Shown piece after piece: positions 26,829 through 27,821 of a stretch of DNA of 64,000 bases. Below the pieces are notes generated by a model that worked only from the letters and a program-made list of their open reading frames with translations, was not told the DNA's origin and made no database searches. The translations under genes and the position numbers were made by a program. Source of the DNA: Escherichia phage vB_EcoM_ESCO47; the sequence record OM386662.1; one strand, given 5' to 3'. Each line of letters opens with the position of its first letter. Position 1 is the stretch's first letter.

Positions 26829-27821
26829 ATGTTACCTGTCATCAGAAAACTTATTTCTCCAAAAGAACTGGCTGAGATTATTCCTTTGTCGGAAGCTTAC
26901 GCATCACAAGTGGCTTCTCATCGCGAACAAGTTAATTCGATTATGAACGGTGAAGACCCACGCAAACTTATTGTTGTAGGTCCTTGTTCAATTCATGACC
27001 CTATTGCTGCTGTTGAATACGGCAAACGTCTGGCTGAACTTCAAACTCGTCTTCCTAATGTTCTGTTAGTGATGCGCGTTTATTTTGAAAAGCCTCGAAC
27101 TACCGTAGGTTGGAAAGGTCTTGTAAATGATCCATATCTTGACGGAAGTTTTGATATGAACCACGGTCTTATAGTTGCACGAACATTGTGTCGTAAACTT
27201 CTGCGTATGGGACTTCCATTAGCAACTGAAGTATTAGACCCATTCACGATTAAGTATCTTTCTGGTATTTTCTCATGGGTTGCTATTGGCGCCCGTACGA
27301 CTGAAAGTCAGACACATCGTGAAATTGCTTCAGGTCTACCGATGTGCGTAGGCTTCAAGAACGCAACCAATGGTTCTATTAAAGTAGCTACAGACGCGAT
27401 GTATAGTGCCGCCCAGCCTCATCGGTATATGGGTATGGACGTCGATGGTACTGTAGGCATTGTTGAAGCTGAAGGTAATCAGAATACGCATATCGTATTG
27501 CGTGGTGGGACTAACGGTCCGAACTATCATTCTTCTGATATTCAAGAAGCTTCTAACAAAGCAAGTGCGGTAGGTCTGAATCATTATGTAATGGTTGACT
27601 GTAGCCATGCAAACGCTGGTGGGTATTATAGCAATCAAATTGATATTGGTAAAAATTTAGCAGCTAATGATTTGGTCAAAGGAATTATGATAGAATCATT
27701 CCTACATGAAGGAAATCAAAAAATTTCTGATAATATGTCCTATGGCGTTTCCATTACCGATGCGTGCATCAGTTGGGAACAAACTAAAGAGCTGTTAACT
27801 TATATTAATAAGGTTCAATAA
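26829..27821 (+). CDS. 3-deoxy-D-arabino-heptulosonate 7-phosphate (DAHP) synthase, class I (AroG/AroF/AroH-like)
   Basis: 330 aa; near-identical blocks to recalled E. coli AroG: [72 protein letters not shown] SD; phage-like codon usage. Confidence 0.9.
   Translation: [330 protein letters not shown]

Follow-up and report, generated by a model that had tools for sequence, protein, structure and literature searches.

Why does a virus carry its own enzyme for the entry into the shikimate pathway? The question is raised by a gene of Escherichia phage vB_EcoM_ESCO47 (record OM386662.1), of which we analysed a stretch of 64,000 nucleotides (nt), here called the window. The gene lies at window positions 26829..27821 on the plus strand and encodes a DAHP synthase, referred to below as DAHPS; DAHP is the 7-phosphate of 3-deoxy-D-arabino-heptulosonate. 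In itself it is an ordinary, catalogued phage metabolic gene, annotated in more than 100 records and assigned to a family of its own (PHROG 5045). Why, among T4-like phages, the 5-hydroxycytosine lineages alone carry it seems never to have been asked. Two points go beyond the known gene: a clade-wide signature of deregulation, and a logic that joins DAHPS with chorismate mutase and a protein of the Peptidase_U32 family (U32 protein). Their genomic tie to DNA containing 5-hydroxycytosine is unreported in the searchable literature. Our reading, which we place just short of an even chance, is that DAHPS is an early-expressed, deregulated enzyme supplying prephenate to the U32 protein for an O2-independent formation of 5-hydroxycytosine.

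Enzyme identity and inhibitor site

The open reading frame (ORF) very probably encodes a type I-alpha DAHP synthase (EC 2.5.1.54; AroF/AroG/AroH family). The elements on which the following argument draws are all located on the plus strand:

26829..27821, plus strand: DAHP synthase coding sequence, 330 amino acids (aa) and stop, type I-alpha, AroF lineage (hidden Markov model (HMM) scores, alignment, AlphaFold2 (AF2)/Foldseek)
26793..26795, plus strand: in-frame TAA bounding the DAHPS N-terminus (read from the sequence)
26819..26823, plus strand: Shine-Dalgarno sequence AAGGA, 5 nt before the DAHPS ATG (read from the sequence)
26985..26987, 27606-27608, 27708-27710 and 27759-27761, plus strand: codons of the metal ligands C53, H260, E294 and D311 (alignment)
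27240..27254, plus strand: codons P138-F-T-I141-K142 of the DPFTIK motif, in which I141/K142 replace AroG P150/Q151 (AroF P151/Q152)
27339..27341, plus strand: codon of P171, which replaces AroG S180/AroF S181 (alignment)

The frame runs from an ATG at 26829 to a TAA at 27819-27821. Between the upstream TAA at 26793-26795 and position 26829 it contains no ATG, GTG or TTG; the short N-terminus is therefore real, and a longer one was rejected. Both the bounding stop codon and the Shine-Dalgarno sequence of phage type had been recognised in an earlier reading made from the letters alone (the sequence-only reading), which also named the product a class I DAHP synthase of 330 aa. This assignment holds at the level of family profiles and fold. 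The product scores above the curated cut-offs of Pfam DAHP_synth_1 (PF00793; 254 bits, cut-off 25.5, E=1.2e-75), of the NCBIfam aroFGH equivalog TIGR00034 (430.9 bits, cut-off 173.2) and of the NCBIfam subfamily NF009395 (458.5 bits, cut-off 343), and stays under those of the AroG-specific and AroH-specific NCBIfam models. PHROG 5045, "phospho-2-dehydro-3-deoxyheptonate aldolase", matches with E=4.8e-181. Among sequences of solved structures the top match is E. coli AroF (6agm, E=3.6e-105; AroG, 5.5e-93), and identity to AroF, AroG and AroH amounts to 51, 48 and 45%. In a tree based on 28 phage-clade and 98 bacterial homologues, the set also used for the alignment, the phage clade was monophyletic in 40 of 40 neighbour-joining bootstraps with AroF within its sister group.

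The AlphaFold2 model (mean predicted local distance difference test score 94, predicted template modelling score 0.92) is a (beta/alpha)8 barrel with the I-alpha-specific beta6a/6b hairpin (strands 198-203 and 209-214). Foldseek superimposes it on E. coli AroG and N. meningitidis DAH7PS with template modelling scores of 0.95-0.96 and a root-mean-square deviation of ~1.5 Å. The AroG-like motif blocks that the sequence-only reading had cited are all present, and so are the four metal ligands it had named: C53, H260, E294 and D311 align with AroG C61, H268, E302 and D326. The residues for PEP (phosphoenolpyruvate) as well as E4P (erythrose 4-phosphate), R83, K88 and R90 (KPRT motif), R156, K177 and R225, are likewise kept, and together with the metal ligands they are invariant across the 126 aligned homologues. 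Judged by conserved residues and fold, DAHPS is predicted to be catalytically competent, converting PEP and E4P to DAHP and inorganic phosphate.

With AroF (6agm) the phage enzyme has in common the (beta/alpha)8 fold, every ligand for metal, PEP and E4P (KPRT among them), and a Gly at the position of AroG S211. It differs in an N-terminus that is ~9-11 residues shorter, so that the AroF N8 region is gone, in I, K and P in place of AroF P151, Q152 and S181, in two deletions (5 aa and 3 aa) and an abbreviated C-terminus, and in being encoded by a phage gene of 40.7% guanine plus cytosine (GC) in a putative early operon with cd.

Several of these differences are properties of the whole clade. Ahead of the position of AroG L16, each of the 28 phage-clade sequences has 5-9 residues, compared with 13-50 in the 98 bacterial ones; AroG D6, D7 and I10 and AroF N8 fall within the missing segment. 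At AroG positions 150/151/180, I/K/P is found in 26/28 phage-clade sequences and P/Q/S in 92/98 bacterial sequences. The motif DPFTIKYL(S/T)...GLPM is invariant among phage genera that are otherwise 56-78% identical. These are positions of known regulatory weight: bound inhibitor is contacted by AroG Q151/AroF Q152 and by AroG S180/AroF S181, the side chain of the latter binding the inhibitor main chain; AroG P150L and S180F are feedback-resistant, and AroF Q152I and N8K remove tyrosine sensitivity (PMC9529685; PMC11843938). Set against the engineered resistant enzymes (AroG P150L, S180F, D146N; AroF N8K, P148L, Q152I), the phage clade is altered at AroG P150 and S180 and at AroF Q152, and it is without the AroF N8 segment altogether. 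Its changes arose naturally, occur together and are conserved, and I, K and P are not the residues found in the laboratory mutants. In the AroG-Phe structure of Shumilin, the N-terminal strand of the neighbouring subunit reportedly closes the inhibitor pocket.

At the sequence level, DAHPS has no intact inhibitor site of the AroF/AroG/AroH type: it lacks the N-terminal segment, and the positions of AroG P150, Q151 and S180 are taken by I141, K142 and P171. From the N-terminal loss and I/K/P at the inhibitor sites we infer that the phage enzyme is probably constitutively active; that it escapes canonical feedback inhibition by tyrosine (Tyr), phenylalanine (Phe) or tryptophan (Trp) we regard as fairly likely. 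The sequence-only reading had treated an effect of the slightly shorter ends on feedback as speculation. Of this idea, the conservation of the N-terminal loss across the clade, together with an altered inhibitor site, is now established, whereas the effect on inhibition is read from the sequence.

A basal member of the phage clade (L025:2517-3515, a crustacean-metagenome contig; P0021) has P/K/P at AroG 150/151/180 and 9 N-terminal residues, and its gene lies in a different T4-like gene context. This P/K/P state is an intermediate one, and could be useful for ordering the steps of inhibitor-site loss.

The U32 protein, chorismate mutase and 5-hydroxycytosine

[quoted passage not shown] The maker of 5-hydroxy-deoxycytidine monophosphate (5-hydroxy-dCMP) is a ThyA homologue using flavin and O2, and the arabinose has been proposed to derive from ribulose 5-phosphate via a phage arabinose-5-phosphate isomerase (PMC13326640). 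Within the modification cluster of RB69, gp50 belongs to the Peptidase_U32 family (Pfam, 42 bits, cut-off 22.4), and its orthologues also score above the cut-off. Aligned by hhalign with an alignment of E. coli TrhP, RlhA, UbiU and UbiV, gp50 gave 91% probability (E=1.2e-6) over a region that covers the signature Cys pair and the FK(V/I)(S/E)GR motif. A phmmer search of the phage U32 protein against PDB sequences returned no match; the relationship is visible by profile methods only.

All characterised U32 hydroxylases depend on prephenate. RlhA forms 5-hydroxycytidine in 23S rRNA and requires prephenate and iron-sulfur (Fe-S) clusters (PMC5727448), TrhP makes 5-hydroxyuridine in a prephenate-dependent manner beside the O2-dependent TrhO (PMC6599085), and for UbiU/V prephenate is the oxygen donor in the O2-independent hydroxylations of ubiquinone synthesis (PMC10990095). 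The published annotation of the phage cluster does not link the U32 protein with prephenate chemistry. DAHP, chorismate, prephenate and U32 are not mentioned in the Nucleic Acids Research (NAR) 2026, Thanatos and Durham-collection papers. In the searchable literature, no paper joins prephenate, hydroxycytosine and phage, and no relevant paper joins chorismate mutase, U32 and phage.

The gene order of the cluster brings these elements together. In Kanagawavirus Entb_45 (L014:4989-7092) and Winklervirus LC53 (L015:4992-7197) it reads isomerase, nucleoside triphosphate (NTP)-transferase, HAD phosphatase, U32 protein, chorismate mutase, ThyA homologue, with 4-nt overlaps at the junctions of chorismate mutase with both the U32 gene and the ThyA homologue. 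The two chorismate mutases match Pfam CM_2 above the cut-off (2e-10 and 2e-11). In 54 phage records a chorismate mutase adjoins the U32 gene, the ThyA homologue or both, and in many genera the U32 gene is translationally coupled or adjacent to it. In RB69 (L013:3498-5662), the corresponding position is held by an unrelated 79-aa protein, gp49; a cryptic chorismate mutase was rejected here, given no Pfam match and an hhalign probability of 0.3%. The modification cluster of phage Marfa (L023:3718-8421) has the U32 gene and the ThyA homologue without SIS/arabinose-5-phosphate isomerase and without chorismate mutase, and its DNA polymerase gene is followed by one for an unknown protein of 555 aa. 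Such a composition suggests another sugar or another pathway, with the 5-hydroxycytosine base unchanged.

By tblastn, DAHPS was detected in 212 phage records. Grouped by the first word of the phage name, the numbers for DAHPS and the U32 protein run in parallel:

Escherichia: DAHPS 124, U32 136
Klebsiella: DAHPS 25, U32 26
Shigella: DAHPS 12, U32 14
Proteus: DAHPS 7, U32 7
Serratia: DAHPS 6, U32 7
Enterobacter: DAHPS 4, U32 4
Edwardsiella: DAHPS 3, U32 3
Enterobacteria: DAHPS 3, U32 3

All Escherichia matches to DAHPS are Mosigvirus at 95-99% or EcS1. Genomes on both lists include JS09, HX01, F2, pEK20, Marfa, Entb_45 and Proteus PM2. Every checked DAHPS-positive T4-like lineage also has the U32 protein, and tblastn found no DAHPS in T4-like records outside the 5-hydroxycytosine/U32 lineages. 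Conversely, ~12-14 Mosigvirus records have the U32 protein without DAHPS. The DAHPS-positive lineages are therefore a subset of the U32-positive ones.

DAHPS co-occurs clearly less well with the isomerase than it does with the U32 protein. Arabinose-5-phosphate isomerase occurs in 57 Acinetobacter phage records, none of which is among the U32 or chorismate-mutase matches, and in <=3 Klebsiella records, compared with 25-26 that have DAHPS or U32. The Acinetobacter matches to DAHPS are 4 records under one phage name (MD-2021a); the one that was seen, 47% identical on a 13-kb contig, looks bacterial. A link of DAHPS to arabinose supply is weakened by this imperfect co-occurrence. Acinetobacter is a strict aerobe, whereas U32-positive phages infect facultative anaerobes, namely Enterobacterales and Shewanella.

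How could the three proteins work together? Tyr, Phe and Trp normally shut down the host DAHP synthase isozymes. A feedback-blind phage enzyme would force carbon into the shikimate pathway whatever the levels of these amino acids, and the raised chorismate/prephenate pool would be supplied to the U32 protein, with the phage chorismate mutase, where present, making the prephenate. The U32 Fe-S protein would then take oxygen from prephenate and hydroxylate cytosine, as dCMP or in DNA, without O2. Such a route would back up the flavin/O2-dependent 5-hydroxy-dCMP synthase in the anoxic, amino-acid-rich gut. It is because U32 hydroxylases are prephenate-dependent and the known synthase needs O2 that we read DAHPS, chorismate mutase and the U32 protein as an O2-independent route. 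A three-part line of this kind, encoded by the virus and ending in cytosine hydroxylation without O2, is put forward tentatively, as somewhat less than an even proposition.

The demand can be estimated. A ~169-kb genome of 38% GC contains ~64,000 cytosines, which for a burst of 100-200 corresponds to ~10^7 prephenate if use is stoichiometric. This is a sizeable share of a cell's normal aromatic flux. The phage would need DAHPS flux in amino-acid-rich, anoxic gut contents in particular, because there the host isozymes are repressed as well as inhibited.

If the proposal holds, the pairing of an O2-dependent ThyA homologue with a U32 Fe-S protein would resemble those of TrhO with TrhP and of UbiI/H/F with UbiU/V, and RlhA makes the same base, 5-hydroxycytosine. 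Unlike in the known U32 systems, hydroxylation would act on a deoxynucleotide or on DNA, the U32 protein of the phages has diverged strongly, and the virus itself contributes the pathway-entry DAHPS and chorismate mutase. The U32 protein as the 5-hydroxycytosine synthase proper was rejected, as the ThyA homologue with flavin and O2 suffices.

A number of observations weigh against the proposed supply of prephenate to the U32 protein. The ThyA homologue alone is sufficient for 5-hydroxycytosine in aerobic E. coli (PMC13326640). RB69, the type phage for arabinosyl-5-hydroxycytosine, has neither DAHPS (L018:7743-8503; NC_004928 133742-134502; cd.2 directly adjoins cd) nor a detectable chorismate mutase beside its U32 gene, yet carries fully modified DNA. 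U32 and chorismate mutase are present in Tegunavirus phiR1-RT and Mosugukvirus PM2 with no DAHPS in the slot, and Mosigvirus and Marfa have DAHPS with no detectable chorismate mutase. DAHPS lies ~61 kb away from the modification cluster, and its co-occurrence with U32 may reflect shared ancestry and few independent events. The U32 protein is so divergent that BLASTP against RlhA, TrhP, UbiU and UbiV gives nothing significant, and the sole annotation of gp50, in the NAR 2026 paper, is a guessed "sugar or heterocycle reductase". The changed inhibitor-site residues are strictly conserved, which could equally mean a new effector. Finally, the searchable literature holds no activity, inhibition or expression results for any phage DAHPS.

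Genomic setting and history of the gene

The genome is that of a Mosigvirus of JS09/ST0 type, and the window is colinear with ST0 from position 69327. The gene order is frd, td, nrdA, nrdB, denA, rnlA, alc, two spanins, pseT and homologues of T4 cd.4, cd.3 and cd.2, followed by a 41-47-aa ORF, DAHPS, cd, a 31.1 homologue, gene 31 and rIII. U32, chorismate mutase and isomerase genes were not found within the window. The immediate surroundings comprise:

24836..25744, plus strand: pseT polynucleotide kinase/phosphatase, upstream edge of the conserved slot (family match)
26427..26455, plus strand: sigma-70-like promoter candidate, TTTACA, 17-nt spacer, TACTAT, with TG extension (consensus match only)
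26484..26720, plus strand: cd.2 homologue (DUF7320), upstream gene of the probable transcription unit shared with DAHPS (65% identical to T4 cd.2)
27821..28402, plus strand: cd, dCMP deaminase, whose ATG overlaps the DAHPS stop in TAATG (family match)

The promoter candidate is located between cd.3 and cd.2, where T4 has an annotated early promoter at the equivalent intergenic position, and no terminator-like site was found on the plus strand from there to cd. It probably drives cd.2, DAHPS and cd, which makes early co-transcription of DAHPS with cd likely. The stop/start overlap suggests translational coupling of the two genes. The small ORF before DAHPS (26677-26820, plus strand; 47 aa from GTG, annotated with 41 aa as ST0 gp163) overlaps the end of cd.2 and stops 8 nt before the DAHPS start. 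Further downstream, we noted a MotA-box-like middle-promoter match (TGCTTTA...TATTAT, 28703-28727, plus strand) directly upstream of gene 31, and the late-promoter TATAAATA at 29091-29098 (plus strand), immediately behind gene 31 and ahead of rIII. Across the window, both MotA-box-like motifs (20 vs 5.9 expected) and late-promoter motifs (17 vs 7.1) exceed shuffled sequences.

The sequence-only reading had placed the gene in the cd.x slot between pseT and cd, had excluded host contamination and had named no known DAHP synthase in canonical T4. All three statements were borne out. T4 has cd.1 between cd.2 and cd, and no DAHPS. The GC content of the gene (40.7%) is near that of the window (38.3%) and therefore speaks against host contamination; contamination or mis-assembly was rejected also on account of the overlap with cd and of 139 phage genomes that share the gene and its neighbours. 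These 139 records, all Mosigvirus (e.g. ST0, HX01, JS09, SF and HY126), carry it at 95-99% nucleotide identity. The gene of ST0 (YP_009608453.1) is the same, with 98.5% protein and 99% nucleotide identity, the same neighbours and no substantive difference. Most GenBank/RefSeq records label it aldolase, DAHP synthase or aroF, some "hypothetical protein". No phage record or readable paper assigns it a role: the phiC120 genome paper lists the domain and nothing more, and the searchable full-text literature contains no functional study of a phage DAHPS.

Comparison of the pseT-to-cd interval showed the slot to be conserved across the T4-like genera that carry DAHPS. Besides Mosigvirus, at least six such genera have an orthologue there, as does a metagenomic T4-like contig:

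pseT-to-cd slot, Kanagawavirus (Entb_45, PEi26): DAHPS, 77-78% identical
pseT-to-cd slot, Marfavirus and other Klebsiella phages: DAHPS, 67% identical
pseT-to-cd slot, Winklervirus: DAHPS, 67-69% identical
pseT-to-cd slot, Kagamiyamavirus EcS1: DAHPS, 67% identical
pseT-to-cd slot, Bragavirus: DAHPS, 58% identical

DAHPS was also found in Shigella phage SdyM_006, Providencia phage PSTCR6 and metagenomic T4-like contigs. Winklervirus X20, Kagamiyamavirus EcS1 and Bragavirus PM2 have these genes arranged as cd.2, DAHPS, cd.1 homologue, cd; DAHPS was therefore inserted upstream of cd.1, which Mosigvirus later lost. Compared with the orthologues of Kanagawavirus and Marfavirus, the gene has a ratio of nonsynonymous to synonymous substitution rates (dN/dS) of 0.14-0.17. 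As a host-type enzyme in a virus, conserved and under purifying selection, DAHPS has the genomic features of an auxiliary metabolic gene. That it redirects PEP and E4P into the shikimate pathway during infection, as the sequence-only reading proposed, is a reasonable hypothesis. Its history is best explained by a single acquisition of an AroF-lineage gene by an ancestor of several T4-like genera, after which purifying selection kept it in one slot between cd.2 and cd.

Outside this clade, Aeromonas phage HJ05 (79 kb; L012:3399-5046) has a distant DAHP synthase of 387 aa, 38% identical and with a long N-terminal extension, that adjoins an Acb2/Tad1-hairpin anti-defence gene. It looks like an independent acquisition. 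No U32 gene and no chorismate mutase was found nearby, so HJ05 was rejected as an independent case of the DAHPS/U32 association. The short records CAKLQH020000056.1 (13 kb), OR851216.1 (2.4 kb), MT835504.1 and MT838377.1 contain bacterial-type, full-length aroF-like genes of 35-47% identity. These four are probably bacterial fragments that inflate the count of "phage" DAHP synthases.

Competing purposes and significance

Would the gene not simply raise the supply of Phe, Tyr and Trp for phage protein after host transcription is shut off, with no link to DNA modification? We consider this unlikely, at perhaps a quarter of the weight. An intact AroF-like enzyme is most simply read in this way; PHROG places the family in "moron, auxiliary metabolic gene and host takeover", and loss of feedback is the very step by which metabolic engineers raise aromatic output. 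Moreover, RB69 and the checked Tegunavirus and Mosugukvirus modify their DNA or carry the cluster without DAHPS. However, amino acid supply leaves unexplained why T4-like DAHPS is confined to 5-hydroxycytosine/U32 lineages and why a second enzyme of the prephenate pathway, chorismate mutase, separates the U32 gene from the 5-hydroxy-dCMP synthase; an unusual wealth of aromatic residues is not known for phage proteins, and aromatic amino acids are already present in gut and rich media.

A different kind of alternative concerns the inhibitor pocket, which might have been repurposed rather than lost, the DPFTIKYL...GLPM surface binding a new effector (for instance a nucleotide, chorismate or prephenate) or else a protein partner from phage or host. 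Genera of 56-78% identity show no variation in the substituted residues, beyond expectation for a degenerated site, and the model keeps the beta6a/6b hairpin that forms the pocket. Yet the N-terminal strand with which the neighbouring subunit closes the pocket is missing, none of our data point to a ligand or partner, and the conservation might reflect constraints of the dimer interface instead. We think this improbable; it would be compatible with any purpose of DAHPS.

Somewhat more remote is a role as a sink for E4P and PEP. Irreversible removal of E4P would pull the transketolase reaction (fructose 6-phosphate + glyceraldehyde 3-phosphate -> xylulose 5-phosphate + E4P) and yield more pentose phosphates for nucleotides and uridine diphosphate (UDP)-arabinose. 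Such a sink would suit an arabinose drawn from ribulose 5-phosphate by the phage isomerase, as proposed (PMC13326640), the presence of this isomerase in most DAHPS-positive genera and the position of DAHPS within a nucleotide-precursor block with cd, td, frd and nrdAB. The distribution described above argues against it: the 57 isomerase-bearing Acinetobacter records go with only bacterial-looking DAHPS matches, and ~25 Klebsiella phages with DAHPS stand against <=3 Klebsiella records with the isomerase. Furthermore, one PEP would be lost per pentose, and chorismate mutase is left unexplained.

T-even baseplates contain folate, and the least probable purpose is a supply of chorismate-derived cofactors, whether p-aminobenzoate (pABA) and folate for thymidylate synthase, dihydrofolate reductase and the baseplate, or quinones. 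Chorismate is the precursor of folate and quinones (PMC9529685) and DAHPS shares its early block with frd and td, but T4 has equal folate needs and no DAHPS, the demand is catalytic and small relative to the output of a deregulated first-step enzyme, the ST0 annotation, which spans 50 kb of the window, shows no pab/fol genes, and chorismate mutase draws chorismate away from pABA.

The supply of prephenate to the U32 protein, if true, would give a function to RB69 gp50, a highly conserved and unexplained protein, and would explain how these phages could modify DNA in the anoxic gut, a setting in which the O2-dependent synthase ought not to work. Both as a prephenate-dependent hydroxylation of DNA precursors and as a viral use of the shikimate pathway for nucleic-acid chemistry it would be without precedent, and it would extend organic-oxygen-donor chemistry from RNA and quinones to viral DNA. 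A deregulated DAHPS would also offer metabolic engineers a natural feedback-resistant DAHP synthase, and for phage therapy the proposal would point to genes whose loss could expose Mosigvirus to restriction under anaerobic conditions. The proposed link between DAHPS and the U32 protein makes both the function of gp50 and O2-free DNA modification directly testable.

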